Shown here: positions 3,543 through 55,413 of the stretch, piece by piece
How the letters are laid out: each line of letters begins with the position of its first letter
Numbering within the stretch: position 1 is the stretch's first letter
Origin: an uncultured Opitutales bacterium
GTDB taxonomy: Bacteria; Verrucomicrobiota; Verrucomicrobiia; Opitutales; T3Sed10-336
Assembly: GCA_964645585.1 (NCBI GenBank)
Contig: CAZYAN010000012.1
Coordinates: forward strand, 5,968-69,967
Direction: 5' to 3'
DNA: 64,000 nucleotides
Made by a program: the position numbers and the translations under genes
Notes under the pieces: generated by a model
Seen by the model: only the letters and a program-made list of their open reading frames with translations
The model's database searches: none
What the model was told of the DNA's origin: nothing

Positions 3543-5462
3543 ATGATGAACGCAAAACTCCCTTTCTCCGTTCTGGCCTCGTCGATTTTGGTGCTGCTGA
3601 TTACCGCGCTTTCCGCGGGCGCGGTTTCCGTGACCACGGCCTTTGATGACGATCTTCCGGATCAGGTTTTGCTTTATGAAACCGATTTCAGCAGCAGCGC
3701 GGGCTGGGATCTGGGCAGCTCGGGCTATATGCTGAGCGGCCAGTTGGGGATTTTTACCGATCCTCCCGAGGGAGCCTGGCGGGGGGTCTACGCCCGATTT
3801 GCCAATGAGTCGATCGTTGGCGTGCCCGTGGAACTGGAGGTCGCCGAGGAAACGACCACCGTCGTGTATTTCAGCGAGCGTTTCGGCGGCACCGGCGAGC
3901 AGAATCAGACGACTTTTCGGCTTCAGGCGGTCGGGGACGGCGCGATGCCCAATCTGGGGGTGCGGATCGGGTCCGCCGAAGCGGAACCGATGCTCGGGAT
4001 TTCGGAGAGTGTGAATATTCTGGGCGAAGGCGATTTCCTTGCCGGTTTGCCGGACATTGCACTGAGCAGCCAGACCTTTTTGCATTACCGCCTCGTCCTG
4101 CACGTGGTTTCGGCGACCGAAACGCTCACGGTTCGTTTCGATCAATACGATCACGGATCAAGTTCGTGGAATGAGGTTGGATCGGTGGAAATTCCGGACT
4201 ACCGCGATCCCTCGCGACTCGGGAGCAGCCAGCTCGACCGCGTCAGCGTGCTCTTCCGAAGCGCGGGCGAGGCGGTGGGCGATCTCGCGATCACGCAAAC
4301 CGCGCCTCCGGGGCCGCCGCTTTTCGCGACGTGGCGGGAAAAGCATTTTACGGAGGCGGAACTCGCGGATGAATCGATCAGCGGGCCGTACGCCGATCCG
4401 GATGGCGACGGTCTTGCGAATCTTGTTGAATATGCGCTGGACGGAGATCCGCGGACGCCGGATTTGGACATCGCTCCCCGGCCGGGAATCTTTTCCGGCG
4501 ATGAAGGCGATTTCCTGACGCTCGGTTTCGTGCCGGCTACGCCGTTGCCGAGCGATCTCCAGTACATCGTCGAAACGTCCGGAGATCTGATCACCTGGGC
4601 TGAAGAGGCGGAACTATTCGGTTTTCTCTTCGACAGCTTCGAAGCGGGGGATGGGACTGGGGGCACGTATGAAACAGGTTCTCTGGACAACAAAACTGGC
4701 GGGTTTGGATGGGTGCCGGGATCTTCCTGGCTGATGAACGGCGCCGGGATCGGATTCAACGTGAATCCGAACCACTACGTTTCCATCAACAGGAATTTGT
4801 CGAACACGACCTCAAGCACCCGCGGTGCGCGGCGCGAGTATGCGGATCCGCTGATTTCGAATTACGAGATCCGCATCTGTGTTGAGCTGGCGGATCTGGC
4901 GGGAATCGACCTGCTGAATCCGGAGGGCGCCCCGAGCACGGGCGGCGGGGGAAATATCACGGATGACGACTATTTTGCGATCTCGCCGAGAAGCACCGCC
5001 GGCGGCCTCGGGAGCACGTTCCACTGGTATGTCGAGGCCGTGGGCGGCTTTTGGTACGCGATGCCGGGCAGCGGATCGTCTTACGGCACGCCTTTGCAAG
5101 TGGCGCCGCTGATTGAGGGAGAAACCTATGATCTGACGATCGCGTTTTCCGGCGAAAACACGTGGTCGCTGAAGGTCTATCTTCAGGATGCGGATGAAAC
5201 GTATGAGTCGGGCTGGCTTCCGTACATCAATCCGAACAATAACACCGACGAAAATCTGGCCCGCTGGGTTCATTTCCGGGTGCAGAATCGGCCGCCGGAG
5301 GTCAATTTTGATATCCGCTTGCACCATGTGTTTATCCCGGATCCATCCGATTCCGCCGATGCGCCGGAGGGCCTGGTGAGATTTCGTGACACGGTATCGA
5401 GCGAGGCAGAGGGGCGCCGGTTTATGAGGCTTCGGGTGGAACTGGACGAGCAAGGTTTGTGA
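3543..5462 (+). CDS. Secreted protein: unknown N-terminal region + DPDGDG Ca-loop-like motif + shared ~230-aa module + 'RRFMRLRVE' terminus
   Basis: Signal peptide 'MMNAKLPFSVLASSILVLLITALSAGA'. Motifs 'ADPDGDGLANLVEYALDGDP', 'YIVETSGDLITW' and 'GRRFMRLRVE'. Module at about nt 4632-5333. Confidence 0.85.
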   Translation: MMNAKLPFSVLASSILVLLITALSAGAVSVTTAFDDDLPDQVLLYETDFSSSAGWDLGSSGYMLSGQLGIFTDPPEGAWRGVYARFANESIVGVPVELEVAEETTTVVYFSERFGGTGEQNQTTFRLQAVGDGAMPNLGVRIGSAEAEPMLGISESVNILGEGDFLAGLPDIALSSQTFLHYRLVLHVVSATETLTVRFDQYDHGSSSWNEVGSVEIPDYRDPSRLGSSQLDRVSVLFRSAGEAVGDLAITQTAPPGPPLFATWREKHFTEAELADESISGPYADPDGDGLANLVEYALDGDPRTPDLDIAPRPGIFSGDEGDFLTLGFVPATPLPSDLQYIVETSGDLITWAEEAELFGFLFDSFEAGDGTGGTYETGSLDNKTGGFGWVPGSSWLMNGAGIGFNVNPNHYVSINRNLSNTTSSTRGARREYADPLISNYEIRICVELADLAGIDLLNPEGAPSTGGGGNITDDDYFAISPRSTAGGLGSTFHWYVEAVGGFWYAMPGSGSSYGTPLQVAPLIEGETYDLTIAFSGENTWSLKVYLQDADETYESGWLPYINPNNNTDENLARWVHFRVQNRPPEVNFDIRLHHVFIPDPSDSADAPEGLVRFRDTVSSEAEGRRFMRLRVELDEQGL

Positions 5463-5545: not shown

Positions 5546-8500
5546 ATGAGTTTGAGCGGATTCGGGGGCCGCGCGTGTGCGGCGGGCCTTTTTCTTTCGG
5601 CGCTGTGCAGCGCGGGAAATTTGAGCGGCCAGGCGGGCGGCGGATTCGTGACGATTTCTCCGGGCGTCCGAATCGTGCTTCCAGCGAATTTGCCCGCTCC
5701 GGTCGTTCGGGCGACGGAGGATTTGCGGCGGGACTTGGCGAAGGTGCTCGGGGGAGAGTCGCCGGTGGCGGCGAAGGAAGGTTTCCCGTTTTCCGAAGAG
5801 ACGGCGCTGATCGTGGCCGGGCCGGAGACCGACTGGCCAGAGCTGGAGTTGTCGGATGAAGTGACCGGGCGGGAAGCGCACGCGGTGTACGTGAGGAAAA
5901 TCGGTGGAATGCCGCATGTCATTCTCCACGGGAGCGACATGCGCGGCATGATTTACGCGATCTACACCTTTTCGGAAGACGTGCTTGGCGTTCCTCCCTT
6001 GTGGCTTTGGGCTTCGTGGGAGCCGGAGGTGAGCGGATCCCTTGAACTGCCGGCTGATTTTCACCGCCATTTTCCCTCTCCGCAAGTTCGGTGGCGCGGC
6101 TGGTATCCGAATGGGCAAACGATGCTCAGTCCGTGGAGATCCCGTTCGCCGGAGCATCACGACGCGTACGCGGAAACGATGCTTCGTTTGAAGCTGAATC
6201 TCCTCGATACGCTTTCGATTCTCGACGGCGGATTTCGCGACCCGTACAAGCTGCACCCGAACGCCGACATGGCGAAACGTTACGGGCTCGTGCTGACGAC
6301 CACGCACACCGCGCCGCTTGGCGCCCATCCGGAGGAGACGCGCTGGAAGAATTTTTGGCGGCGGGTCAAGGAAACCGACCCGCCGCCGCGTTCGATTTAT
6401 GATCTCGAATCGCTGCGGACCTACTGGGCGTATCATATTGAAGCGGCGATGCATCACGGACTGGAGATGATCTGGCCGATCGGGTTCCGGGGATCGGGAG
6501 ACATTCCGTTTTGGGAGGATGCTTACGAGGATCCGGGGACGGATGAAGAGCGCGCGGCGGTGATCGAGAGAATGCTGACGGCCCAGGTGGAACTGCTGCG
6601 GACGCTGACCGGGGAGGAGGCGCCGGATATGCGGATCACGCTTTACAACGAGAAATCGGATTTCGTGGCGGCGGGGCTTCTCGACCTTCCTGATGAGCCG
6701 GGGCTGGTTTACAATTTCGTCGCGGCGCGCCGGGATCACTATCCGCCGCCCGATCTGCTCGGATTTGATTTCGAACCGCGGCATCTCGCGGGTTATTATT
6801 TCAATTACTCCTTCGTTTCAACCGGATCGTTCATTGCCCAGGGAGAGGGGCCGTGGAAAATGGAGTGGAACTTCCGGACGGCCGACGAGGCGAGTCCGAA
6901 CGGGCTCGTTCTAGCTGTCGTCAACGCCGGGAACATCCGGGAACATGTCATGGAGCTGGCCGCGAATGCGGCGATGATGCGGGATTTCGGCGCTTACGAC
7001 AGCGACGCGTTTCTCCTGAAGTTTTGCGAGACGTACTTTGGGGAAGAACAAGCGGAGGAGATCGCACGATTGTATCGAGATTTTTACGACGGCTATTGGG
7101 TACAGCGGGAACCGGATCTGGACGGCTTTGCGAGACAGTATCTGTTTCAAGACCTGCGGCTTCATCGGGCGATGCGGATTCTCATTCCCTTGCTGCGGTC
7201 GCGGACTCCCGATATGAATCCGTTTTGGGAAGGCGACTGGTTCCGGATCGATCCGGCGGCGAGCGGGACGGATAACGAAATCGCGGCGGTGATGGCCGGG
7301 ATGGAGAAGGCGATCGCCACGTTGGAATCCGTTGTGGAAAAGGCCGACGCGCTGCTGCCGGGAATCGATCCGTCGAAGCGGGCGTTTTTCAACGACAACC
7401 TCCGCGTTCAGGCGTATTTCCTGAAATACGCGAGCGAAGTCGTTTATCATTTGAGCCAGGCGATGCGGGCGCTGCACGATGGGGACGACCTTTGGCCGCC
7501 GGTCGATCGGGCGGACCGGGCGGCGGCGGCAATGATCGCCATACTTGCGGAGACCGAACACGGCATTTTTGACGACTGGTATGCCCCCGACACGCATTTC
7601 CACTTCCACGACCGGAAGGCCGAGATCGCGGAGCTTCTCGCGGGGATCGCGCCGGCCGGTTTCAACGATTTCTCGCGGTGGCAGCGAACGCATTTCACTG
7701 CGGAGCAGCTTTTGAAAGAAGAAGTGGGCGGGCCGCTTGCGGATCCGGATGGTGATGGCCTGGCGAATCTGCTCGAATATGCATTGGGCGGAAATCCGGG
7801 GGCACCCGATGCCGAAGTTTTATCGCGGTTTTCGGGCGCCGGCGCCGGGGAGAACCGGTTTTTGACGCTCGGTTTCACGCCTCCCGCGCCGCTCCCGGGA
7901 GATGTTCGCTACGTGGTGGAGACCTCGGACGATCTGGTCGGCTGGACTGCTGACGCTAAACAGCTGGCCGCTGTTCTGGACGATTTCCGAGCAGGTGGCG
8001 GAGGCGGCGCATCCTATTCGACCGGCGATATCAACGGCCAGCGGGGCGGCACGGGCTGGGCGGAAGGTTCCGAGTGGAGTCTTTCCGGATCCGGCGGGAA
8101 CCGGCGGCATATCGCGCCCGGAGGCTGGCTGGAGTTCAGCAAGTTCAACACCGCCCACGAAAACAATCTGATCAATCTCGCCCGCGAGTATCCGGCCGCG
8201 GCCGACGCTTCGCTCGAGATTCAGATCGAGGTCGAACTCGTCAACCTCGCCGGCATTCGTCTTCTCGAAGGCGGTCCGACCCGCTCGGGCGCGGATCACG
8301 CGACGGATCTTTTTGCGATTTTCGACGGAGGCGGGAGGAAAGGCGCGGTCGGGAGCGACGTCCCTTGGTACGTCGAGGCCGCGGGCGGTTTCTGGCACGC
8401 CTTGCCCGGCTCGGCGGGTGGCGGCAATTACGGGGAGCCTGTTCGCTTGGCGCCGCTAGTCGAAGGGGAAACGTATCGGATCACGGTGGCGATGCTCGAG

Positions 8501-8800
8501 GATGAGCGATGGGAGGTTACGATCCGGGTGATGAATTCTGGAGAAATTCACAAGTCAGGCCCGCTGCCTTTTATCGGCGAAAACCGGGGCGTGAAAAACT
8601 GGATCAACATCCGCGCCGGGTACTCTGACACGGCTGGAAGCGATTACGAGATTCGCCTTCACCGAATCGCGGTGGTCAAGCCGTTTGCCTTTGCGGACCG
8701 ACTGGCACCGGGAGAACCGGTGCTGTTTCGCGACAGATCTCCGATTCGCGACGGGGCACGGCGATTTATGCGCCTGCGTATTGAAAGGAATTCTTCTTAA
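5546..8800 (+). CDS. Secreted glycoside hydrolase, GH115-like (alpha-glucuronidase family) N-terminal part, with C-terminal shared module
   Basis: Signal peptide. 'HGSDMRGMIYAIYTFSEDVLGVPPLWLWASW' resembles the GH115 'GSDxRGxxYGxYxLSExxGVSPWxWW' block, followed by 'VRWRGWY'. C-terminal 'ADPDGDGLANLLEYALGGNP', module at about nt 7975-8690, and 'RRFMRLRIE'. Confidence 0.7.
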   Translation: MSLSGFGGRACAAGLFLSALCSAGNLSGQAGGGFVTISPGVRIVLPANLPAPVVRATEDLRRDLAKVLGGESPVAAKEGFPFSEETALIVAGPETDWPELELSDEVTGREAHAVYVRKIGGMPHVILHGSDMRGMIYAIYTFSEDVLGVPPLWLWASWEPEVSGSLELPADFHRHFPSPQVRWRGWYPNGQTMLSPWRSRSPEHHDAYAETMLRLKLNLLDTLSILDGGFRDPYKLHPNADMAKRYGLVLTTTHTAPLGAHPEETRWKNFWRRVKETDPPPRSIYDLESLRTYWAYHIEAAMHHGLEMIWPIGFRGSGDIPFWEDAYEDPGTDEERAAVIERMLTAQVELLRTLTGEEAPDMRITLYNEKSDFVAAGLLDLPDEPGLVYNFVAARRDHYPPPDLLGFDFEPRHLAGYYFNYSFVSTGSFIAQGEGPWKMEWNFRTADEASPNGLVLAVVNAGNIREHVMELAANAAMMRDFGAYDSDAFLLKFCETYFGEEQAEEIARLYRDFYDGYWVQREPDLDGFARQYLFQDLRLHRAMRILIPLLRSRTPDMNPFWEGDWFRIDPAASGTDNEIAAVMAGMEKAIATLESVVEKADALLPGIDPSKRAFFNDNLRVQAYFLKYASEVVYHLSQAMRALHDGDDLWPPVDRADRAAAAMIAILAETEHGIFDDWYAPDTHFHFHDRKAEIAELLAGIAPAGFNDFSRWQRTHFTAEQLLKEEVGGPLADPDGDGLANLLEYALGGNPGAPDAEVLSRFSGAGAGENRFLTLGFTPPAPLPGDVRYVVETSDDLVGWTADAKQLAAVLDDFRAGGGGGASYSTGDINGQRGGTGWAEGSEWSLSGSGGNRRHIAPGGWLEFSKFNTAHENNLINLAREYPAAADASLEIQIEVELVNLAGIRLLEGGPTRSGADHATDLFAIFDGGGRKGAVGSDVPWYVEAAGGFWHALPGSAGGGNYGEPVRLAPLVEGETYRITVAMLEDERWEVTIRVMNSGEIHKSGPLPFIGENRGVKNWINIRAGYSDTAGSDYEIRLHRIAVVKPFAFADRLAPGEPVLFRDRSPIRDGARRFMRLRIERNSS

Positions 8801-8806
8801 CGACGA

Positions 8807-11800
8807 ATGAACACGAATCGAGACGAATTGCTGATGACGAAGCTTGCCGCGGCGACCTGCGCGGTGTTCCTGATGCTGAGCACCGCGGCTAGCGGTGGAA
8901 CCTTTTTGGAGGAATGGACGGGAGGCGCGGATACGGAGAATCTGGTCGTTCTGGTGGCGGACGGTCAGCCGGCGGCGACCGTTGTTTTGCCGGAAAATCC
9001 GACGGGAGAGCACGAACGTGCGGCGAACTTGCTCGTCGATTCCGTTGAGCAAATGAGCGGCGCCCGGCTTTCCGTTGTTTCCGATCCCGGTTTGGTGGAA
9101 ACAGGAAACCGGATCTGGATCGGTCTGCGCCCGGAGTTGACGCAGTATTTTCCGGAGGCGGATCTCGGGTTCACAAAGCCGGAGGAGCTGGTTATGATCG
9201 CGAAACCGCGTGAGCTGCTGCTGGCGGGCCGCGACGAGACGGTCGACGGCGCTCCGGTTCAGGCGGGAACGCTGCTTTCGGTTTTGACGTTTTTGCAGGA
9301 TCGGCTCGGTGTACGCTGGCTCTGGCCAGGTGAGAACGGTACGGATTATCTCACGTCGGAAAACATCGCGTTCGCGCCGTTCGAATACCGGTATCATCCG
9401 CCGCTGACGCACCGGAATCTTCGCGGAGTGAATTTCGCGAATCGCTGGAACGCCGTCTTGCGCGAGGAGGACCGGCGGAAAGCGCCGAACAAAGAGGCGT
9501 TGATCGAAAAATACGCCGGCGGTTACGACGCGATGCCGGATTTAATGCGGGAAAAAGACCGGGAAGCGCAGGCGTGGTTTAACAAGCAGCGGGTTGGCGC
9601 CCAGAACGCCCGGGTACTCGGCGATTCGTTCAATCAGGCGGCGCGGGGAAGTCTGCCGTATGAGGCGCAGCATTCGTTCGGCGACTGGTATGACCGGTTC
9701 GCCAAGGATCATCCGGAGTGGTTTGCGCTGCAGCCGGACGGAACCCGGGTCAGCGAGCAGGAGGAGCCGTATCCGCAAAAAGATCGCGTAAAGCTCTGCA
9801 TTTCGAATCCGGAAGTCGCCGCCCAATGGCTGGACGATGCGGAGGCGTATTTTTCGGCGAATCCGAACGCGACGATGATCAGCGCCTCGCCGAACGACGG
9901 CGGCTGGCAAGGGTATTGCGTTTGCGAAGTCTGCAAAAGCTGGGACGCGCCGGATGCGCCGATGCTGCCGCGCACGCTGCTTTGGCGCGGGCACCAGGAG
10001 GAGCATCGCGCGCTCACGGATCGTTATGTGAAATTTTGGAATATCCTGGCCCGCGGGCTGAAGGAGCGTTTTCCGGATCGGGATTTGAAGATCGGGGTTT
10101 GGGCGTATTGCGCCTATGAGCCGGCGCCGGTTCGGGAAATGCTGGAGGATAATATCATCCCCGGCTATGTCGGGATTCGGAATCTCGAAGTCGGTCAAAA
10201 TTCCCGGGAACGGATCGAGAACAACGTCGCCGCCTGGCGCGGCTGGGCGGAGCACGGGGCATCGGGAATCGTCTGGCGGCCGAATACATTGAAGCGGAAC
10301 GCGGGTTTGCCTTATGTCTACATGCACCGGCACGGCGATGTCTGGAATGAACTGGCGAAAAACAAGATCGTCGGATTCGATGTCGACAGCATCCACCATC
10401 ACTGGTCGACGCAGGCGCCGCAGTTTTACGTGATGGCGCAGCTCGCGTGGGATCCGACGCGGAAGGCGCGGGAGATCCTGGACGACTTTTACCGGCGTGC
10501 CTTCGGGGAGGCGGCGGCTCGGTATGTGGACGCCTACTTTTCGGTTTTCGAGCAGCTTTATTACAAGATCGATGAAACGCACCAGGACTGGGGCAATCCC
10601 GCGTGGCACTTTTATTCAGGGCTTCCGCGCGCGTATCGCGAGATGAAACTTGCGCCGACGCTGGGACGGTCGATGGCGGATCACGCGTGGGGCGATTACC
10701 TGTGGGAAAAACCGGACGCGACGTTTACCGCCGAGGAGCTGGCCGCGGAATATCTGCGGCGGGCGGAAGCGGCGGTTGCAGACGGACCGGAGATCTACCG
10801 AAAGCGCGTGGCGTTCTTGCGCACGGGTTTTGAGTTGATCGATCCGCAGCTCGATATGATTGAGGTGATGAATGAAATCCGCGCCGGGACGGACGACATG
10901 GATGCGGTGATGAGCCAAGCGTATTCGGCGGCCGAACGCCGGGAAAAGGTGCTCATCGAAAATATCCGCAATTTCGCTTTCGGTTATCCGCAGCTGCTGA
11001 TGCATTACCGCTACATCATGCCGCAGCGCCTCGGGCCGCCGGAGAACCTCGAATCCGCGGCACCTCGCGGTTTCGGTTCGTGGCAGGCGGAGCATTTCAG
11101 TCCGGCGGAGCTGGCGGATGAATCGGTCAGCGGCCCGTATGCCGATCCCGATGGTGACGGGCTGGCCAATCTGCTCGAATACGCTCTCGGCGGAGATCCG
11201 CGATCGGCTTCTCCGGAAATTGCCCCGCGGACGGCGCTTGCGGAGGCGGAGGGAGGGCGTTTTCTGGTGTCGGGTTTTACTCGCCCGCATCCTTTTCCGA
11301 CCGACATCGACTACCGTGTCGAGACTTCGGACGACCTGGTTACATGGTTGGAAGAAGCCGAAGAAATGTCCGTGCTGATCGACGGATTCACGGCTGGCGA
11401 CGGCAGCGGGGGCAGTTACTCCGCTGGTGATATTCATGGCCAAGCGGGCGGTTTCGGTTGGGCGCCTGACTCTGTCTGGACCATGTCCGGGCCGGGCGGG
11501 CATCGGCGGCACATCGTACCCGGAGGCGGCCTGGAGTTTTCGAAGTTTTCCCTGAGCGGGCAAAACAATCTCATCAATCTCGCGCGCGAGCACCGGGCGG
11601 CGCACGACCCGCCGTTTGAGGTGCGGATCGATGTTGAACTTCTCGATCTCACCGGGATCCGGCTTTTGGAAGGTGAGCCGTCGCGCTCCGGCGCGAATCA
11701 CGCAGACGATCTTTTTGCGATCTTTGACGGGGGAGGAAAGCTCGGCCCGGTCACTTCGGATTCTCGGTGGTATTTGGAGGCTGCCGCCGGTCACTGGCAC

Positions 11801-24974: not shown

Positions 24975-25268
24975 CTATCCGTTCCGCAGGGCGTTGACCA
25001 ATTGCTCCTTGTTCATGTGGCTTCGGCCCTGAATGCCTTTTTCTTTCGCTCGATTGTAAAGCTCGTCACGGGTTCGCTCTTCGAGTGATCGGTTGGGATT
25101 GCCGGTGCCCTGGGATGTTTTTTGGGGAGTCCGGCCTTCGGTGCGCCGGCGCTTGTTTACCGTGCGTGCCGCGATTTCTTTAGCTCGTTTTTCCCGCACC
25201 CCGCGATCCTTGCTGCTCTCCTTGATGTGCTCGTACTGCCGTTCATCTTTGCGTGTCCATTTTGGCAT
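24975..25268 (-). CDS. Small basic protein with C-terminal Rho_N/SAP-like motif
   Basis: ATG at 25268: 'MPKWTRKDERQYEHIKES...'. The C-terminal 'ELYNRAKEKGIQGRSHMNKEQLVNAL' resembles the Rho-N helix-extended-helix motif. Confidence 0.7.
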   Translation of the reverse strand: MPKWTRKDERQYEHIKESSKDRGVREKRAKEIAARTVNKRRRTEGRTPQKTSQGTGNPNRSLEERTRDELYNRAKEKGIQGRSHMNKEQLVNALRNG

Positions 25269-25354
25269 CACGTGATCTTCCTTCCTTATGCACAAGATAG
25301 GAACGGAGCCTTCCGGCGCAAACCGGGCGCGCATTCAGAGTGCGGATCTCTCCG

Positions 25355-26791
25355 CTATCGGAACTCGTGAAACTCGCGAGGCGCATCCGCGTTATTGGAT
25401 GTGCCCGCGGATCCGTCATCCAGCTCCAGCGGGTAGTGGAGGTGGAAAACTGTCCCGGTTTCGTCGGAACGAACGAGCGCGAGATCGGCCTCAAGGTTCT
25501 TTGCTAGACGCTGGCTGATCGCGAGCCCGAGCCCGCTGCCGCCGCTGCGGCCGCTTCTTCCGGCGGTGAAGAGATGAGGCCGGATCTCTTCCGGGATTCC
25601 CGGGCCCTCGTCGCCGATTTCAAAAGCGATCTCCGTCGGGCGGCGCATGATGTGGACCCAGATCCGTTTTCCAGCGGGCGTCAGAGCAACGGCGTTGTCG
25701 ATCAGATTGACGAGGATCAGGAGGAGGATGTTTGCCGCGTGTCCCGGAAGGAGGGCTTCGCCGCTCCGTTTCTGTTCAAGATGGAGGCCGGCGGCTGTCG
25801 CTTTTGGACGGAGCTTTTCGGCAAGCACGGCTTCGAGTTCCTCGAGGGTGAGTTGAAACGAAGTGGTCGCGTCCTGTTCTCGGAGAACCTCGACGACGTC
25901 ATCAACGAGGGTCCGGATTTTGTTGGTCGCATCAGCGAGCTGCTTCCAGCTTTCCGGAGACGGTCCGCGAGTCAGCTCGGCATCGCGCGTTTGCAGAAAT
26001 AGATCCAAGCTTGTAAGCGGATTGCGGATACCATGAATCAGATGGGACGTCACAGCGCCGACCGCTGATGTGCGCGCGGTGAGGGAAAGGTCCTGATTGG
26101 CCTTGATCAGGCGCCGGGTTTGCGCCATCAGGGCGCGGTGGGAGCGGGTGAGACGGATGAAGGCAAGGGCGGCCACTGTGATGATTGCGGTGACACCGAT
26201 TCCGAACGCTGTTCCGGCCTGGATAAGGAGGGTGCGGTCGAGTTGGGCAAATTCGTCATGCACCTGGCTGCCATCGATGATGTATTGGATCATGGCGATG
26301 ATCTGGCCGGTCGTCTGGTCGTGAAGAGGAATGACAATTTCTTCTAACGGAACCTGTTCGGTGACCTGCTCGCTCGGCGGTTCCTCAAAGAATGTTTGCA
26401 GGTCGGAGTGCGGGTCGAATTCGGCAATCGGCTCCCCGCGTATAAGCTGGGCCCGCTCCTGTGCCGACAGGACATCTTCCGGAACGTTGTAGGGGAACGA
26501 GAGGAGAAAGTCGCCGTGGAGATCGAAGAGGCGCACCGCGAGCACGCCGCGGAGTTTAGATGTTTGCAGGGCAATGCTTAGTTCGTCGAGCGGGGCCGCT
26601 TCATCGGTGATTTGCAGCATCCTCGCCACGGCCGCGAGAACGTGCGCGTCGCGGTCGAGAATCTGTTGGCGGATTTCACGGCGACTTTGCAGCGCAAGCA
26701 CGAGGACGACCGCGGCAAATACCGCGGAAACGCTCCCAATCGCAAAGGACCAGGTTTTCCAAGAGGGCGCTTTTTCGACGGCTCCGCTCAT
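25355..26791 (-). CDS. Sensor histidine kinase (2 TM + ~190-aa periplasmic domain, HisKA + HATPase_c)
   Basis: ATG at 26791 lies 28 nt after the upstream stop. H-box 'SHLIHGIRNPL', N-box 'LIDNAV', G1 'GDEGPGIP' and G2 'GSGLGLAI'. Confidence 0.85.
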   Translation of the reverse strand: MSGAVEKAPSWKTWSFAIGSVSAVFAAVVLVLALQSRREIRQQILDRDAHVLAAVARMLQITDEAAPLDELSIALQTSKLRGVLAVRLFDLHGDFLLSFPYNVPEDVLSAQERAQLIRGEPIAEFDPHSDLQTFFEEPPSEQVTEQVPLEEIVIPLHDQTTGQIIAMIQYIIDGSQVHDEFAQLDRTLLIQAGTAFGIGVTAIITVAALAFIRLTRSHRALMAQTRRLIKANQDLSLTARTSAVGAVTSHLIHGIRNPLTSLDLFLQTRDAELTRGPSPESWKQLADATNKIRTLVDDVVEVLREQDATTSFQLTLEELEAVLAEKLRPKATAAGLHLEQKRSGEALLPGHAANILLLILVNLIDNAVALTPAGKRIWVHIMRRPTEIAFEIGDEGPGIPEEIRPHLFTAGRSGRSGGSGLGLAISQRLAKNLEADLALVRSDETGTVFHLHYPLELDDGSAGTSNNADAPREFHEFR

Positions 26792-26819
26792 CGTTGCCCC
26801 TATTTCGATCACATTTTTT

Positions 26820-28028
26820 TCACAATTGCCATCCCAGACCGACGGTCCAAGTGTCGACGGAGTATTCCTCGGGAGCATCCCGGGATTCGACAAAATCCCG
26901 CGAATACGTGAGAAACACCTCGATCTGTTCGCCCAGTGCGCGCCGCACCTCAAACGTCAGTCCCGCATTCTCGCGCCGTCGGCGCGAACCTTCCTGTTCA
27001 ACTCGCTGAACGCCATACCGGTATTGTGAGAAACGCGCGGTTGCTTCGACCAACCAAAGCTTGTTATCCCAAGCAATTCCTTGGCGAAGTGAGAACCGAT
27101 CGTAGGAATAGTAATTGGAAATCGCATCGCGAACCAGATCGATTCCGGCGACGGTCGAACTGCTCCAGTGCCCGGATTCCCCCCAAACCTGCCGAATCCC
27201 GAACTCCCAGGCATACTGGTGCTGCCTCGCCTTCTTGTTATTGATCACGCTGGCGTCGTCGCGGAACGCACGGCGATCGTCATCGCTTCTGTATGTGTAG
27301 TCAAATCCGGCGGTGAACTTGGTTTGCCCAGGTTCCCAGCTGATTTTGACCCCGGCGCCGGTCTCCCAGAAGGCACTGACATTTTTGTCCCGGGGCAGAT
27401 GGCGACTGACAATCGGGCCTGTTTCGAGGGACAAGTTGTCGCGCCGCAGCAGGCGAAGAACCGGCCGGAAACCGGCACCGATGGCGCGCAAACGCAGGCG
27501 CTCGCGTTCTCCGTCCGTCATTTCAACTTCGAGGACTTGGTCGAGGTAATAGACCTGAAGCGGAACCGAGATCGCGTAGAGGGCCGAAGGCGATCGGTCG
27601 TAACGGACCACCAGTGCCACAAATGTGTCATTGGGCAGGCCGGATTCGAACTCGAGATGTTGCGAACTCACCAGCAGCGAGAGTGAATCCAAGCTTCCGA
27701 GCCGGATCAGGGAAGCATCGAATCCGCCCAGGAGGAACGCGCCGCCTTCTTCACCGGAGGGTGCGAGAAAAACATTGTCACGATAACCGGCGCCGGCGGA
27801 GAGGCTTACCGATTTGTCCCAGATTATTTCAAAGGCTGGCTGCAAGAGCGCATCCAGGTCGAGCGTTCCGAGGTCATCACCGCGCAGCCAGCCTTCAAGA
27901 AAGTCATCGCCGGCTGAGGGTGCGGCATCGTTCGGTTGTGGTTCGGCGGCGAGAGATTGGGAAGCGCGGCAGATCGGCGGAGAGGTGAGCAGGACGAACC
28001 AGAGGAGGTTGAGCGCGAGCCGTTTCAT
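26820..28028 (-). CDS. Putative outer-membrane beta-barrel protein
   Basis: ATG at 28028 gives signal 'MKRLALNLLWFVLLTSPPICRA'. Alternating amphipathic strands run throughout. There is an early 'LSAGAGYRDNV' strand and a C-terminal 'VDTWTVGLGWQL'. No enzymatic motif. Confidence 0.65.
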   Translation of the reverse strand: MKRLALNLLWFVLLTSPPICRASQSLAAEPQPNDAAPSAGDDFLEGWLRGDDLGTLDLDALLQPAFEIIWDKSVSLSAGAGYRDNVFLAPSGEEGGAFLLGGFDASLIRLGSLDSLSLLVSSQHLEFESGLPNDTFVALVVRYDRSPSALYAISVPLQVYYLDQVLEVEMTDGERERLRLRAIGAGFRPVLRLLRRDNLSLETGPIVSRHLPRDKNVSAFWETGAGVKISWEPGQTKFTAGFDYTYRSDDDRRAFRDDASVINNKKARQHQYAWEFGIRQVWGESGHWSSSTVAGIDLVRDAISNYYSYDRFSLRQGIAWDNKLWLVEATARFSQYRYGVQRVEQEGSRRRRENAGLTFEVRRALGEQIEVFLTYSRDFVESRDAPEEYSVDTWTVGLGWQL

Positions 28029-28047
28029 ACAGCCTGGCTGGATGCAG

Positions 28048-29559
28048 TCACAGGCGGGTGATGAGCAGTCGGAAGAATCCGCGGTCTTTTCCTGGAGGCG
28101 CGTCACTCCGCCAAGTTTGGACGGCGGCCGGTTGTCCGATCAGTTCGTGATCAACGTCGATCCAGGTGACCAGATCTTCCGAGAATTGCGGCCGCCATTG
28201 AAGATCGCCTTTTCGCAGGTCCGCGAAAAATTGAAAGGCTTCACCGAAAACCGTCATCTCGAGTTCAGGGAGGAGCTGGAGATCGGAGGAGTCGAGGGTC
28301 CCGCTGAAGGCGTACGCCAAAAGATTTGGAATGCCGGTTCCCGAAGGATCCGCAAGCGGCTCTTGTTCAGGAAGAGCGAGGTCGGGAAAGCTTGCGATCC
28401 AATCGTGATAATATCTTTCGGACAAACCGTCACGGTTTCTCCCGGAACCGAATGCCGGCCAGGTGGAAACGGCGAGCCCGCTGGTCGTCTCAAAGGCATA
28501 GAGATTGCCATCGCGGCTCCCGATATAGACAATGCCGTTTGGCGCCAGCATCGGTGAGGAATCACTTGGCCCTCCTATAGCGATCCTCCAATTGAGCGTT
28601 CCGTCGGATCGCACCGAATACAGGTATCCATCGCGGGACGCAAAAAATACATCGCCATCCGCGCTCACTGCCGGTGAGGAATAGACCGGTCCATCGGCCG
28701 CATAAGGGGGCCATTTCAACGTGCCGTTCGCCGGATCGAACGCGTAGAGATGATTGTCGCCGGAGCCGACGTAGACCGTGTCATCCGGGCCGATGGCGGG
28801 AGAGGAATCGACGAGACCGCCGGTCGTGTATTCCCAGATCAAGAATCCACCTGTTGAAAGCGCCAGAAGGCGGTCGCCCGCGCCGATGAAAATGATGCCC
28901 TCCTGTCCGATCGCCGGCGAGGAGAAGACGATGTCTTCCGCATAATAATTCCAGAGCAAGGTTCCGCTCGAATCGACGGCATAGATGTACCCATCCCAAG
29001 AGCCAAAATAAATCGCGTCTTCAGATTCCGAATACGCAGGAGAGGAATCGATCCACCCGTCGGTAGGAAAGGACCAAACCATCCCGCCGTCGGGCGCAAT
29101 CGCATAAACGGAAAAATCTCCTGAGCCGACGTACACCGTTCCATCCGGGGCAATGGTCGGCGAGGAAAAGATGAAATTCGCGGTGGGAAACGGTGAAGAC
29201 CAAACGGGGGTCCCCTCAAAGTCGAAAGCGTGGAGATTAAAATCCCAATCGCCGATATAAACGGTGCCGTCTGGATCGACGGCTGGCGTGGAATCGATCG
29301 AGAACGCGGGGCTCGACGGTGCTGTCCAGCGCTGGGAGCCGTCCGGGTTGATCGCATGAAGGAACCCGTCGTCGGATCCGACATAGAGGGTGCCGTCCCA
29401 AGCGAGTGCAGGGGATGAATCGATTTTTCCACCCGCTTCGGTGTAGGTCCACACGGAGGCCGGATCCGCGCGGAGCGGAAAGGGCCGTCCGGCCGCGGCG
29501 AGCACGATAGCGGCGATTGTGACAAGACAGAGAAAACGCGCGGACGGGTGACCGACCAT
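28048..29559 (-). CDS. Secreted PQQ-like (BamB-like) beta-propeller repeat protein with C-terminal 'GFFRL' domain
   Basis: Signal 'MVGHPSARFLCLVTIAAIVLAAAG'. At least 8 repeats of the 'SSPA(I/V)xxDGT(L/V)Y(V/I)GSxDxxLYA' type. C-terminal 'IPNLLAYAF...DLVTW...RGFFRLLITRL'. Confidence 0.85.
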   Translation of the reverse strand: MVGHPSARFLCLVTIAAIVLAAAGRPFPLRADPASVWTYTEAGGKIDSSPALAWDGTLYVGSDDGFLHAINPDGSQRWTAPSSPAFSIDSTPAVDPDGTVYIGDWDFNLHAFDFEGTPVWSSPFPTANFIFSSPTIAPDGTVYVGSGDFSVYAIAPDGGMVWSFPTDGWIDSSPAYSESEDAIYFGSWDGYIYAVDSSGTLLWNYYAEDIVFSSPAIGQEGIIFIGAGDRLLALSTGGFLIWEYTTGGLVDSSPAIGPDDTVYVGSGDNHLYAFDPANGTLKWPPYAADGPVYSSPAVSADGDVFFASRDGYLYSVRSDGTLNWRIAIGGPSDSSPMLAPNGIVYIGSRDGNLYAFETTSGLAVSTWPAFGSGRNRDGLSERYYHDWIASFPDLALPEQEPLADPSGTGIPNLLAYAFSGTLDSSDLQLLPELEMTVFGEAFQFFADLRKGDLQWRPQFSEDLVTWIDVDHELIGQPAAVQTWRSDAPPGKDRGFFRLLITRL

Positions 29560-29762
29560 GCTGGGGATGTTTGGGATGTTGGGGAAACGCCGCAAGTTCA
29601 AATGGGCATCCCGGGCATTCCAAGCGAGAACCCTCCGCGCCGAGGCACCGGATCCAGAGGAAGAATCTTTGTTCTTCTCTGGACGGCGGTCCCGGCGCGG
29701 AGGGCTTGCAACCGAATCACTATGAAAAAGATCCCGTAAAAAAAGCGATGGGTCCGCGCGGC

Positions 29763-30419
29763 CTAGTCCTTGTCGCGGCGCGTCTCCCGGTCTTGGATCA
29801 CCGTATCGCGAATGGCCCGGGCCTGTTCGCGCTGCTGGGCGATAAACTGTTCGCGGAGGGCCGCGAGGGCGTCCTTGATTTCCTGTCCGGTCTTTCCTTC
29901 GCCAAGGAGGGTGTCGCGGAGTTGACGCATCTGGTCGAGGTGGCTGTTTCGCGCGTTCCGGAAATTTTCGAGATGTTCGCGAATTGCCTGGGAGGGAGGC
30001 TCAGCCCGGGGACGGTTTGGATCGGGCGCGATATTTGGAATCGGAAGATCGCCGGGAATAACCAGTTCCGCGGCGGACTCCCGAATATCCTCACTGAGCT
30101 CGCGGAGATTGCGGATCGCCTGGAGGTTCGCCGGGTTTCCTTCAAATTCTCGGATCTTCGCGCGCCGCTGGTCGGGCGTCAGATCGCGCAGTGTCTTCGC
30201 GAATTCCTGCCGGCTCGAGAGTAGTTCCGCTCGCTGGCTTTGGTATTCTTCGATCTGGAGCTGAAGGTCGAGCGGGATAACATCGAGGATGTCGTCGAGG
30301 AGCCCTCCCAGTAAACCGGTTGCTTCCGGCTCCGTCTGAGCGCGCACCGGCAAAGCGGCGACGGCAAAGAGGATGCTCGCGCTGGCAAAGACGGACAAAG
30401 TTGGGATCCGTGTTTTCAT
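29763..30419 (-). CDS. Periplasmic alpha-helical protein with LTXXQ-like motif (Spy/CpxP/ZraP-like, tentative)
   Basis: Signal 'MKTRIPTLSVFASASILFAVAALPVRAQ'. Charged helical body containing 'LTPDQRRAKIREF'. Sigma-54-type promoter directly upstream. Confidence 0.75.
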   Translation of the reverse strand: MKTRIPTLSVFASASILFAVAALPVRAQTEPEATGLLGGLLDDILDVIPLDLQLQIEEYQSQRAELLSSRQEFAKTLRDLTPDQRRAKIREFEGNPANLQAIRNLRELSEDIRESAAELVIPGDLPIPNIAPDPNRPRAEPPSQAIREHLENFRNARNSHLDQMRQLRDTLLGEGKTGQEIKDALAALREQFIAQQREQARAIRDTVIQDRETRRDKD

Positions 30420-30437
30420 CAGTAGCTCTATCGCTGT

Positions 30438-30453
30438 AGCAGAGGTCGTGCCA
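30438..30453 (-). promoter_or_regulatory. Sigma-54 (-24/-12) promoter candidate
   Basis: The minus strand reads TGGCACG-ACCT-CTGCT, against the consensus TGGCACG-N4-TTGCW, with correct GG..GC spacing. The -12 GC lies 20 nt upstream of the ATG at 30419, so the leader would be only ~8-9 nt. A sigma-54 enhancer-binding protein is encoded immediately upstream. Confidence 0.5.
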
Positions 30454-30528
30454 ATTTCACGGAATATTGTAAGATGTTTATGCAGGCTAGGTTATAATTT
30501 CACACGCGAGCCTCGATCAAACGCTTTG

Positions 30529-30544
30529 TGGGAAGTGTTTCCCA
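30529..30544. promoter_or_regulatory. Inverted repeat, possible enhancer (UAS) site
   Basis: TGGGAA-gtgt-TTCCCA lies ~76-91 bp upstream of the -24 element. No second copy was seen. Confidence 0.2.
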
Positions 30545-30695
30545 GGTTAGAGGTGCTGTTGGGTAAAAATCCCCAATTTCGGCTCGGTGGTCGGAACCGA
30601 CAAAAACCGTTTTTTGAAATCGTTGTGTTCGGCGGGTTCATTTCCGAAAACTGTTTCGCACAATCGCGCTAACAGTTCAAGCTAGGGTTTTTACC

Positions 30696-32099
30696 TTACG
30701 ATGATGCCTGTCCGGATTTCTTCTTCAGTCGGTAGCGGATGTAATCGCGCGGCACGGAGAGAAGGCGGGCGGCGGCCGAGACATTCTGCTGGGTTTGCGC
30801 GAGGGCGTGATGAATCAGCCGGTTGATAGCTTCGTTCAAGTCGAACCCATGTTCAGGAAAAACAAACGCGGTGTTGAACCATTCGTTGGTCGCGCCGTTG
30901 CCGTTTCCTCCTGGTGCCGCGGCCGCAAGTTGTTCGAGATCGAGGGGATCCGTCTCTTCAAAGACGACGGCCCGTTCGAGGACATGCTCGAGTTCGCGGA
31001 CATTGCCCGGCCATGGGTGGGCTTTTAGCCGCGCGGTACCTAATTGGGAAACCCGGATCGTTTCGAGCCGGTAGCGGCGCGCGATTTGCCGGAGCAGGTG
31101 ATCAGCGAGTCGCGGAAGGTCCTCAGGCCGCTGGCGCAGCGGCGGGAGGCGGAGGCGGTAAAGGTCGAGGCGGTGGTAAAGGTCTTCGCGGAAGACACCG
31201 GCTCGCAGCGCCTCGCGCAGATCGACATTGGCCGCGGCGATGACGCGCACGTCGGCTTCGATCGTTTTGCTTCCACCGACGCGACGGATCCTCCTGTCTT
31301 CGATCGCGGTCAGCACTTTGGCCTGCAACGGAAGGGACAGGCTCGAAATTTCGTCGAGAAAAAGCGTTCCGCCGTCAGCCGCCTCAAACAGACCGATTCT
31401 TTCTTTCCTGGCGTCGGTGAACGCGCCGCGTTCATGGCCGAAAAGTTCCGATTCTGCCAACGATTCGGGGAGGGTGGAGCAATTTACCTCAACCAGCGGT
31501 CCCTCTTTCCGCGGGCCGTGATAATGAATCCAGCGCGCGATCGAACTCTTGCCGGTCCCCGTCTCGCCTTCGATTAAAACGGGAGGGAGGGCGGCGCGGA
31601 GGCGCTCGTCGGCAGTGAGGATTTTTTCCACCCGCTCCCGCACCGCTTTCAGTCCCGGACTGAATAGAAACTTTTCGGGCGCGACCGCCTCCTGTTCCCG
31701 CCGAAACTCTTCGAGGCGGCGAGCTTGGCGGTGTTGCCGGATTCGGTGGAGCGTGAGCGGAATTTCCCCCGCTTCAAACGGCTTTGCGACAAAATCGGCC
31801 GCGCCGAGCCGCATGGCTTCCACTGCCGTTTCGACACCGTTGCTGGCCGTCATCACGATGACGGAGGTATTGTCGGAGAAGGCGCCATCGCGCAGCAGAT
31901 CGAGCCCGTTTCCATCCGGCAGATTGACGTCGAGCAGGACGAAATCGAACGGCATTTGGCTTAAAAGCTCGCGCGCCTGCTCGCAGTTCGCGGCAGCGGT
32001 TACCGATGCTTGGCGATTCTCTAAAAACGCGCACAGGCGGCGGCGAAGAAGGGTTTCATCTTCCACCACCAGAATCTCCGCGTTTTTCAGCGTTTCCAT
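30696..32099 (-). CDS. Sigma-54-dependent response regulator (REC + AAA+ EBP + Fis-type HTH)
   Basis: ATG at 32099 'METLKNAEILVVEDE'. 'FVLLDVNLPDG'. Walker A 'GETGTGKS'. 'GAFTDA' variant of GAFTGA. 'LFLDEI' Walker B. C-terminal HTH 'NVSAAARLLSVPRDYIRYRLKK'. Confidence 0.9.
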   Translation of the reverse strand: METLKNAEILVVEDETLLRRRLCAFLENRQASVTAAANCEQARELLSQMPFDFVLLDVNLPDGNGLDLLRDGAFSDNTSVIVMTASNGVETAVEAMRLGAADFVAKPFEAGEIPLTLHRIRQHRQARRLEEFRREQEAVAPEKFLFSPGLKAVRERVEKILTADERLRAALPPVLIEGETGTGKSSIARWIHYHGPRKEGPLVEVNCSTLPESLAESELFGHERGAFTDARKERIGLFEAADGGTLFLDEISSLSLPLQAKVLTAIEDRRIRRVGGSKTIEADVRVIAAANVDLREALRAGVFREDLYHRLDLYRLRLPPLRQRPEDLPRLADHLLRQIARRYRLETIRVSQLGTARLKAHPWPGNVRELEHVLERAVVFEETDPLDLEQLAAAAPGGNGNGATNEWFNTAFVFPEHGFDLNEAINRLIHHALAQTQQNVSAAARLLSVPRDYIRYRLKKKSGQASS

Positions 32100-32260: not shown

Positions 32261-32844
32261 TATTTTCCTCTCCCGGCACAATGCCAGTAACACGCACGGA
32301 AGACCTCTCGCATGTTTCCCCCGTTTTGGTGGAACGCCCCTTCCGCGACCGCGGCCAAGGCGTCGTTCCAGCCGTCTCCAGCGAGGCGTGCGGCCAAATC
32401 GAGGGCGAGGCTGAGATTCGGAGCGGTCGTGTGGAGGACGGGGAGGCCGCATGGACGGTGGACGGTCGCCACGAGTCCGCTGCCGTTGCGGCGAGCCCGC
32501 CGGATCAGGCGCAACCAATGGAATCTTCCGAGGGCTTCGCCTCCGTCGATTAAACACACTTGTCCGGCTCGCAACGAGCCCGCTCGGTCAACTGCATCCT
32601 TCCGTTCGATTTCTGTTGAGCTGCTGTTGAGAAAAGCCCGAACAACCTCCACTCTTTCTTCTTCGAGAGCGCGGCCGAGGTCTTCGAGCAGAACGGACTT
32701 TCCGGTCCCGTGCGGTCCGAGAATGCAGCCGTGCCAGTTTTCGATTCGAAGATGATTGAGCAGCAGCCGCTGTTGTTTCGCTGAAATGCGAAAGCGGATC
32801 TCAGCGATCGCGGAGGATCGAAAAGGATTTTCGTTCGCCCTCAT
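32260..32844 (-). CDS. Small P-loop NTPase of unknown function
   Basis: Walker A 'ILGPHGTGKS' and Walker B-like 'QVCLIDGGE'. ATG at 32844 overlaps the upstream gene by 44 nt. Confidence 0.65.
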   Translation of the reverse strand: MRANENPFRSSAIAEIRFRISAKQQRLLLNHLRIENWHGCILGPHGTGKSVLLEDLGRALEEERVEVVRAFLNSSSTEIERKDAVDRAGSLRAGQVCLIDGGEALGRFHWLRLIRRARRNGSGLVATVHRPCGLPVLHTTAPNLSLALDLAARLAGDGWNDALAAVAEGAFHQNGGNMREVFRACYWHCAGRGK

Positions 32845-55098: not shown

Positions 55099-55413
55099 TC
55101 GATTTTCGGAAAGGGAAGCAGCGAACGTGCCAGCCTGGCGGACAGGAGGCGCGGCGGGTGAGGTTTGTCGGCGTCAATGCGAGCTTGGGGGAGCGAACGA
55201 GTGGGTTTGGTTGCGTTCTGCACGCGGGCGAAGCGGCGGGGTTGCGCATTGCAAAACGCGGTTTCTCGTGGACTGGCGAAACGTGGAAGGGAGTCAGGAC
55301 ATGCCTGCGGCAGTGAAGTCCAGCCGGGGCGCATCCAGTCGACGAATCGGAGAGTTTCGATTTTTGTTCGATCCCGCGCTTGTCGCGGATATCGTTTCCG
55401 GTGGAACAGTGTG

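Follow-up and report, generated by a model that had tools for sequence, protein, structure and literature searches.

The DNA analyzed here, which we call the window, is a stretch of 64,000 nucleotides (nt) from an uncultured Opitutales bacterium, and the subject of this report is a cluster of five genes on its minus strand. They encode a response regulator of the sigma-54 enhancer-binding protein (EBP) type, a small secreted helical protein, a propeller protein, an outer-membrane barrel, and a sensor histidine kinase. A listing of open reading frames (ORFs) bore out the gene ends given in the first-pass annotation, as well as the gaps of 276, 203, 19, and 28 nt between the genes. Domain hits, the promoter, and conservation together identify the cluster, as that annotation had proposed, as a sigma-54 two-component unit with envelope proteins. 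The genome assembly comprises 3.89 Mb in 108 contigs and is 97% complete. The features of the locus are as follows.

30696-32099, minus strand: EBP (sigma-54 enhancer-binding response regulator), 467 amino acids (aa).
30560-30575, no strand assigned: distal enhancer-like palindrome TGGGTAAAAATCCCCA, a perfect match to TGGG-N8-CCCA.
30529-30544, no strand assigned: proximal enhancer-like palindrome TGGGAAGTGTTTCCCA, also TGGG-N8-CCCA, ending 76 bp upstream of the -24 element.
30439-30453, minus strand: predicted sigma-54 promoter TGGCACGACCTCTGC (-24 GG, -12 GC), 19 nt 5' of the helical gene ATG.
29763-30419, minus strand: helical protein, small, secreted, and Arg/Glu rich, 218 aa.
29560-29762, minus strand: spacer between the helical and propeller genes, 203 nt.
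28048-29559, minus strand: propeller protein, 503 aa, with the propeller part at 28423-29559 (residues 1 to 379) and a tail at 28048-28422 (residues ~380 to 503).
26820-28028, minus strand: outer-membrane barrel, 402 aa.
25355-26791, minus strand: sensor histidine kinase, 478 aa.

The longest frames of the EBP, propeller, barrel, and kinase genes begin upstream of the ATG starts used here. The longest EBP ORF starts at a GTG at 32297, and orthologue alignment favors the ATG at 32099; this start and those at 29559, 28028, and 26791 are backed by alignments of orthologues and by signal-peptide-like N termini. Three short stretches singled out previously, “LTPDQ” in the helical protein, the propeller tail “GFFRLLITRL,” and “GAGYRDNV” in the barrel, were all found on direct reading of the sequence.

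The helical gene is the first gene downstream of the predicted sigma-54 promoter, which lies in the 276-nt spacer exactly where a -24/-12 promoter had been claimed (TGGCACGACCTCTGC, 30453 to 30439). It has the -24/-12 spacing of the consensus TGGCAC-N5-TTGC, sites upstream of it, and an rpoN gene in the genome (one copy, 428 bits, over the cutoff), as had been expected. Taken alone, the string is at chance level, with 58 sites of two or fewer mismatches in the window versus 54 expected. The palindromes, of 16 bp each, are 31 bp apart and lie 76 to 122 bp upstream of the promoter. TGGG-N8-CCCA has just two matches in the window, both in the spacer between the EBP and helical genes, and 28 matches across the genome (3.9 Mb), among which the pair in this spacer is the only one whose members lie within 70 bp of each other. 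Moreover, there are 46 matches to the promoter pattern genome-wide, and only TGGCACGACCTCTGC has two perfect palindromes 40 to 250 bp upstream. Since the combination of the promoter and the palindrome pair is unique in the genome, the activator appears to have a single target promoter here.

The same arrangement recurs in relatives. Of 23 related loci, 22 have TGGCA[CT]-N5-NTGC within ~100 nt 5' of the helical gene, and a palindrome is present in most of them as well. This type of promoter, usually with a palindrome, precedes the helical gene in genomes G002, G003, G006 (twice), G007, G009, G016, G023, and G004, in metagenome contigs L035 and L037 to L039, and in eight genomes of other families or orders. 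The arrangement of promoter and palindromes, conserved in relatives, is far beyond chance.

Two further sigma-54-like sites were noted. In the window, a near-consensus string, TGGCACGTTCGCTGC (55118 to 55132, minus strand), lies 19 nt 5' of a 282-aa ORF that starts at 55098 and has a GGDSGIG motif like that of short-chain dehydrogenases; no TGGG-N8-CCCA palindrome is nearby. In one of the eight more distant genomes (G100), the combination of a sigma-54 promoter and two TGGG-N8-CCCA palindromes occurs a second time (contig L046, 13470 to 13611), ~380 nt upstream of the gene for an 842-aa secreted repeat protein with a YRVRSL-type tail (L046, 10564 to 13092, minus strand), and the regulon may thus be larger in some genomes.

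The EBP has the receiver, AAA+ sigma-54 interaction, and Fis-type helix-turn-helix (HTH) domains of the NtrC family, all with Pfam scores above the cutoffs (Response_reg, 85.8 bits; Sigma54_activat, 202 bits; AAA_lid_14, 69.8 bits; HTH_8, 23 bits). It reaches no NCBIfam equivalog cutoff, the best being AtoC at 351 bits versus the required 714. Its orthologues score 460 to 620 bits, versus 300 bits or less for paralogues; within the family of the window, the values are 500 to 620 bits and 50 to 67% identity. In aligned orthologues of 50 to 63% identity, D57, K106, the Walker A motif, and the HTH are all invariant, and the conservation of the HTH matches that of the palindrome. The sigma-54 contact loop reads GAFTDA and is invariant in seven orthologues; compared with GAFTGA, the F and T are kept, and the Gly at position 5 is replaced by Asp. 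The genome has ~9 EBP genes. It is very likely that the EBP acts through the sigma-54 promoter on the helical gene. In G023, the EBP orthologue (L028, G023:C80) is unlinked to a cluster of the helical, barrel, kinase, and propeller genes; it lies between an O-antigen-ligase-like gene and lptF/lptG, so that its neighbors there are envelope biogenesis genes.

The helical protein has a cleavable-looking type I signal peptide (VRA|Q) and no lipobox. An AlphaFold2 (AF2) model shows two modules, each a helical hairpin, with a Pro-rich linker between them; the helices at residues 50 to 119 and 144 to 217 have predicted local distance difference test (pLDDT) values of ~90, and the model as a whole has a mean pLDDT of 74.8 and a predicted template-modeling score (pTM) of 0.40. 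Aligned syntenic members share the motif F-R-x5-L-x2-E-R-R ... L-R-D-[AL]-[ST]-x-E-E-R, and PERP/PEKP runs are frequent among them. A family profile hidden Markov model (HMM) found the gene to be single copy in the genome, and searches of Pfam, NCBIfam, the Protein Data Bank (PDB), and Foldseek returned no match to the protein.

The first-pass annotation had taken this protein to be LTXXQ-like, i.e., related to Spy, CpxP, and ZraP, and had drawn a parallel between the whole cluster and the ZraPSR system. The kinship was not borne out. PF07813 (LTXXQ) and PF13801 (Metal_resist) gave no match to the window protein at an E value of ≤5 or to seven family members at an E value of ≤1, and a search of PDB with the family profile (hmmsearch) did not find the Spy, CpxP, or ZraP chains. 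Probabilities from hhalign against Escherichia coli Spy, CpxP, and ZraP (from NC_000913.3) were 0.2 to 0.8%, compared to 98.4% for a Spy-CpxP control; a single-sequence ZraP-Spy control was itself undetectable, so sensitivity toward ZraP is limited. Foldseek returned nothing at an E value of <1 for a model whose pTM is only 0.40 (best PDB match, E = 1.1). “LTPDQ” occurs once in the window protein, and the family position reads D-[AL]-[ST]-x-E-E-R rather than LTXXQ. Kinship to OmpH/Skp was also considered and rejected, as the weak matches in three of seven members (best E value, 0.027) were judged to be compositional. For the cluster to be a true ZraPSR orthologue with a metal-responsive LTXXQ chaperone is therefore extremely improbable. 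In favor of it are the shared wiring logic, the one “LTPDQ,” and the NtrB/ZraS-type H-box of the kinase, but the EBP scores 279.7 bits against 760 for ZraR (NF007689), the kinase scores 48.8 bits against 479 for ZraS (NF007688) with a match only from its second transmembrane segment onward, and the LTXXQ/Metal_resist, hhalign (<1%), and Foldseek comparisons and the family motif are all negative. The parallel thus holds for wiring, in which an EBP acts through a sigma-54 promoter on a gene for a small secreted helical protein near a kinase gene, and fails for descent, for which the equivalog and LTXXQ tests were both negative.

In two lineages, the helical gene is present in two copies, and a separate sigma-54 promoter and palindrome accompany each copy (contig L014 of G006, 7420 to 8043 and 8403 to 9113; contig L038, 1472 to 2095 and ~4721 to 5392); in L038, three pseudopilin-like/DUF7305 genes lie between the copies. 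A strong hairpin follows the helical gene in G006 and G009 (z-scores of -3.2 and -4.3), which suggests attenuation at this point. Duplication under separate promoters, together with strong hairpins, is what one would expect if the product is abundant and induced by stress.

The kinase has the domain order of a HisKA-type sensor kinase: a transmembrane segment (TM1), an extracytoplasmic domain of ~155 aa, a second transmembrane segment (TM2), and a helical linker that runs straight into the DHp domain, followed by HATPase_c (71 bits). HisKA itself scored 23.1 bits versus a cutoff of 26.9, and the H-box “HGIRNPL” is present. Pfam detected neither a HAMP nor a PAS domain. The TM1-sensor-TM2 layout is kept in 15 orthologues, which align over residues ~10 to 455, including the sensor domain, where the motifs RDA..L.AVA, GVLAVR, PLLEV.VPL, and DG...EF..LDR are found; in most of the loci examined, the barrel gene is adjacent. 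A CBS match of the sensor domain (E = 0.001) was judged to be spurious. A search for related loci starting from the kinase alignment returned only unrelated kinases, and no close paralogue of the kinase was found in the genome at an E value of <1e-20. Because the kinase and EBP genes are colocalized across the phylum and the kinase has no such paralogue, their co-inheritance makes it likely that the two proteins are partners.

Searches with the barrel, kinase, propeller, and EBP found the five-gene set conserved in Verrucomicrobiota-type genomes, in keeping with what had been anticipated. In the family to which the window belongs, the propeller, barrel, and kinase genes are adjacent in five genomes, and a further genome (G007) fits this pattern with the kinase gene on another contig. 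The EBP orthologue is on the same contig in G003 and G006 and beside the helical gene in G002, and one or two small secreted Arg/Glu-rich helical proteins, each with its own promoter and TGGG-N8-CCCA sites, are encoded between the EBP and propeller genes. Metagenome contigs recovered by exhaustive search with the barrel have the order promoter, small protein, barrel, and in some cases kinase, and in one of them the EBP gene is immediately upstream. One close relative of the cassette came from a soda-lake brine metagenome (PMC7923331).

In eight further genomes from other families or orders, the EBP, helical, barrel, and kinase genes were present in all eight, and six have the codirectional order EBP, palindrome/promoter, helical gene, barrel, kinase, and propeller. 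G141 has the order EBP, barrel, kinase, promoter, and helical gene, and in G100 the propeller gene was not found near the cassette. The propeller/barrel pair had been described as an expansion of a ZraPSR-like set. The gene order does not support that description, as the barrel, kinase, and propeller genes commonly all follow the helical gene. Only in the family of the window does the propeller gene lie between the helical and barrel genes. Since the phylum-wide order has the propeller gene behind the kinase gene, the “split” between kinase and EBP genes reflects a family-specific move of the propeller gene to the front of the barrel gene. Judged from its distribution, the five-gene set is ancient in the phylum.

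A trypsin-like serine protease gene was observed beside the cassette in three related genomes. It lies between the EBP and helical genes, divergent from the latter, in G003 and G006 and upstream of the helical gene in G009 (L015, 12874 to 13776; L014, 9515 to 10465; and L013, 14588 to 15547; all on the plus strand), and the G006 and G009 copies encode a PEP-CTERM tail. The window has no such protease gene, and a search for a sigma-54 promoter of the gene in the relatives was negative.

The propeller protein belongs to the PQQ_2 repeat class (Beta-prop_ACSF4, 166.7 bits; PQQ_2, 154.2 bits), and its orthologues, at 42 to 54% identity, are encoded within the same cassette. Identity with BamB, a protein with a lipoprotein signal and an 8-blade PQQ-like propeller, was considered and rejected (TIGR03300, 91.2 versus 285.2 bits; NF008351, 65.9 versus 423 bits); the N terminus has no lipobox, and there is an additional C-terminal tail domain. 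This domain, made up of the last ~125 residues, was found by jackhmmer in 101 ORFs of the genome, at the extreme C terminus in 85 of them, with endings such as RF[MLI]RLRV, RRFMRLRVE, and GFFRLLITRL; Pfam gave no match to it. It looks like a lineage-wide docking or sorting domain of exoproteins, and because the tail is common to exported proteins, the propeller is probably exported or surface docked. The propellers of other families bear a different C-terminal domain.

These properties bear on the possibility that the cluster is a dedicated export or surface display unit, in which the barrel would translocate or anchor either the propeller or the helical protein, with the two-component system doing no more than regulating this process. 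The propeller always bears a C-terminal domain of the exported-protein type, and its gene adjoins the barrel gene (19-nt gap) and accompanies it also in contigs without the kinase gene. However, ~100 proteins of the genome carry the tail, and the barrel gene is single copy and adjoins none of the others; in addition, the common gene order places the kinase gene between the barrel and propeller genes, and G100 has no adjacent propeller gene. We therefore consider such a unit to be quite improbable.

The barrel has a signal peptide and ends in “VGLGWQL” (...W.F in relatives). Its AF2 model is confident (mean pLDDT, 83.8; pTM, 0.73) and shows 16 strands, between which the connections are short, preceded by ~45 disordered residues at the N terminus. 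Foldseek gave 341 matches to outer-membrane barrels at an E value of ≤1e-3, and the protein is an outer-membrane beta-barrel in the generic sense; the matches are generic 14- to 18-strand channels (porins, FadL, OprO, and BcsC) with template-modeling (TM) scores of 0.3 to 0.47. The barrel has no match in Pfam or NCBIfam. Word-indexed homologue searches were almost without yield for both the barrel and the helical protein. The barrel family was seen only by exhaustive HMM search, which found 912 representative clusters (at 50% identity) at an E value of ≤1e-3 and 377 at ≤1e-30. The family is patchy in the phylum (15 of 301 sampled genomes at an E value of ≤1e-8), and the gene is single copy in the genome. 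Among 54 relatives of the barrel, 8 match PF13505 (OMP_b-brl), 3 match BBP2_2, and 10 weakly match TIGR03016 (best E value, 7.4e-6); the window barrel itself has no TIGR03016 match.

The “GAGYRDNV” strand had been likened to DUF560/Slam or BcsC barrels, and neither likeness withstood comparison. DUF560/Slam proteins have an N-terminal TPR region and a 14-strand barrel; the barrel here has 16 strands and no TPR, and no DUF560 match was found in it or in the 54 relatives. BcsC-type export barrels combine a long TPR region with a C-terminal 16-strand barrel and are encoded in a cellulose synthase operon; BcsC ranked 10th among the Foldseek matches with a TM score of 0.39, no better than the porins, the protein here lacks a TPR region, and its gene has no bcs neighbors.

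The Foldseek matches raise the question of whether the cluster is instead a substrate uptake regulon in which the barrel would be a specific outer-membrane channel, the propeller would be a surface or periplasmic binding protein, and the kinase and EBP would respond to the substrate, as in DctBD, AtoSC, or the ChiS-chitoporin system. Many NtrC-family two-component systems control transport, the best matches of the barrel are substrate-specific channels (chitoporin, OccD/OccK, OprO/OprP, FadL, and CymA), and the best NCBIfam scores of the EBP are those of AtoC and NtrC. However, TM scores of 0.3 to 0.47 are generic for 14- to 18-strand barrels, and the connections between strands in the model are short. 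Moreover, an uptake system offers no role for the helical gene, which is directly under the promoter and is duplicated in some genomes, and the loci examined contain no conserved inner-membrane transporter or catabolic gene in the cassette. We regard uptake as unlikely.

The weak TIGR03016 matches bear in turn on the possibility of a divergent form of PEP-CTERM/exosortase regulation, in which counterparts of PrsK/PrsR and a TIGR03016 barrel would control surface proteins linked to exopolysaccharide (EPS). PEP_resp_reg (TIGR02915) is the third-best NCBIfam match of the EBP at 301.2 bits, relatives of the barrel weakly match TIGR03016 (10 of 54) and BBP2_2 (3 of 54), the protease gene beside the cassette in G003, G006, and G009 is of the PEP-CTERM kind, and PrsK/PrsR is also sigma-54 dependent (PMC1569441, PMC9850573). 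Nevertheless, 301.2 bits compares with a cutoff of 502.6, and TIGR02916 reaches 49.5 bits versus 300; the window barrel lacks the TIGR03016 match, the promoter does not target a PEP-CTERM protein, the cassette contains neither exosortase nor EPS genes, and the protease gene is missing from the window and from most loci. Regulation of this kind is accordingly very unlikely here, and the apparent links of the barrel to PEP-CTERM-associated barrels are faint.

Whether the promoter serves the genes beyond the helical gene depends in part on the 203-nt spacer. A scan of this spacer predicted neither a minus-strand terminator nor a sigma-70 site, and its RNA fold has a z-score of +2.15. A second promoter before the propeller gene was considered and rejected, since the aligned spacers of relatives have no conserved block and there is no correctly spaced -24/-12 site. 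The four genes downstream of the promoter are probably cotranscribed: the 203-nt gap has no hairpin, the next gaps are of only 19 and 28 nt, and there is no conserved internal promoter, all of which points to read-through here.

On the basis of these observations, we assign a probability of roughly 0.6 to the conclusion that the region is a self-contained sigma-54 two-component envelope-signaling cassette of an Opitutales-type bacterium. In such a cassette, the kinase would sense an extracytoplasmic signal via its conserved ~155-aa domain and phosphorylate the NtrC-family activator (30696 to 32099), which would bind both TGGG-N8-CCCA palindromes and drive the promoter at 30439 to 30453. The first and probably most abundant product would be the secreted Arg/Glu-rich helical protein, and read-through, which is probable here, would extend transcription to the propeller, barrel, and kinase genes and provide positive feedback on the kinase; the circuit is probably autoregulated. 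The helical protein would act as a stress-induced effector or feedback modulator, similar in action to CpxP, ZraP, or Spy and unrelated to them, and the barrel and the exported propeller may be accessory sensing or target components.

Several observations weigh against this conclusion. Four other REC-EBPs of the genome have no adjacent kinase gene, so that, on this genome alone, cross-pairing is possible. Contigs L034, L037, and L038 have the helical, propeller, and barrel genes without an adjacent kinase gene. The sensor domain of the kinase matches neither a Pfam family nor a solved structure in PDB, and the helical protein has no detectable kinship to known chaperones or modulators, its role being argued from position and composition only. 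Finally, the porin-like Foldseek matches of the barrel fit uptake as well as they fit a stress role.

As to what the cassette does, we tentatively propose, short of even odds, a role in monitoring or repair of the outer membrane and periplasm, because the helical gene is at the promoter and is duplicated in two lineages, because all of the products are located in the envelope, and because the regulon has a single promoter, as in Psp and Zra. A more ambitious hypothesis is that the barrel, the exported propeller, and the unclassified extracytoplasmic domain of the kinase are physically joined in one trans-envelope sensor, through which sigma-54 would be informed of the state of the outer membrane or surface; the helical protein would serve as the induced effector and also as a feedback brake. 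The cassette would then be a surveillance pathway specific to Verrucomicrobiota (and relatives), made from two families for which neither Pfam nor NCBIfam has a curated model, and a functional analogue of Rcs, Cpx, and Zra unrelated to them by descent. We consider this hypothesis to be doubtful.

The surroundings of the cassette also contain genes of other kinds. Starting 20 nt past the kinase stop codon is a gene for a very basic 119-aa protein (24975 to 25334, minus strand), whose C-terminal motif weakly resembles Rho_N (E = 5.6e-4, below the cutoff); this gene might be cotranscribed with the kinase gene. In the window, a convergent gene for a lipoyl-FabH fusion lies past the kinase gene at a distance of ~430 nt; in L037 and L038, a gene of this type directly follows the cassette genes, and in L034 a HipA-like gene lies downstream of the barrel gene.

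To our knowledge, envelope stress sensing is understood almost wholly from Proteobacteria (Cpx, Rcs, sigma-E, Bae, Zra, and Psp). Soil, seawater, and guts all harbor abundant Verrucomicrobiota, whose envelope biology is unusual. In the literature searched, we found neither a description of such a cassette in Verrucomicrobiota nor a characterized envelope stress pathway in that phylum. The cassette offers a compact testable system of one kinase, one activator, one promoter with a defined palindrome, and three envelope proteins, two of which are founding members of uncurated families (that of the barrel comprising ~900 clusters at 50% identity), and the promoter and palindrome could be put to use in these organisms as an orthogonal sigma-54 reporter. 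If it is true that the barrel and propeller belong to the sensor, they would represent a new coupling of outer-membrane state to transcription.

The known system that shares the most features with the cassette is ZraPSR, found in E. coli and Salmonella (for a review, see PMC4987338; for ZraR as a narrow-target regulator, see PMC8249747). Both combine a kinase that has a periplasmic domain with an NtrC-family EBP, and in both a sigma-54 promoter has its main target in a gene for a small secreted helical protein that adjoins the two-component genes. A very small regulon and, probably, autoregulatory wiring are also common to the two. In contrast, the small protein and the sensor domain of the kinase have no detectable homology to their ZraPSR counterparts, and the EBP and kinase are not equivalogs. 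The cassette adds a 16-strand outer-membrane barrel and an exported propeller and lacks a metal-binding His/Gly-rich tail, and its genes are codirectional here, whereas zraP and zraSR are divergent. CpxP-CpxAR and Spy likewise feature a stress-induced small helical periplasmic protein encoded beside a two-component system, and feedback of the helical protein on the kinase is plausible here. However, CpxR is of the OmpR type and works with sigma-70, and the family described here fails the LTXXQ tests and consists of two Arg/Glu-rich modules with a Pro-rich linker. PrsK/PrsR resembles the cassette in being an NtrC-family sigma-54 two-component system associated with an uncharacterized outer-membrane barrel (TIGR03016), and relatives of the barrel show faint profile similarity (PMC1569441, PMC9850573). 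It differs in that the scores are below the cutoffs, there is no exosortase/EPS context, and the target here is not a PEP-CTERM protein.

The QseE(GlrK)-QseG(YfhG)-QseF(GlrR) system of enterobacteria is also sigma-54 dependent, and a gene for a helical envelope accessory protein separates its kinase and EBP genes. QseG is an outer-membrane lipoprotein required for kinase activity, and the target of the system is the small RNA gene glmY. The cassette likewise has an accessory helical-protein gene between the kinase and EBP genes; in contrast to QseG, the helical protein here has a type I signal peptide and no lipobox and is itself the target of the promoter. The EBP of the PspF-PspA system acts on what is essentially one promoter, from which an abundant helical stress protein is made; the protein in question, PspA, is located in the cytoplasm, and PspF lacks both a receiver domain and a kinase. 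The cassette is similar in that its EBP has essentially a single promoter, that of a helical protein, and is different in that this protein is secreted and the EBP has a receiver domain and a kinase. Set beside these systems, the cassette is a sigma-54 two-component system that includes a secreted protein in an accessory or effector role and draws on two protein families that lack curated models.

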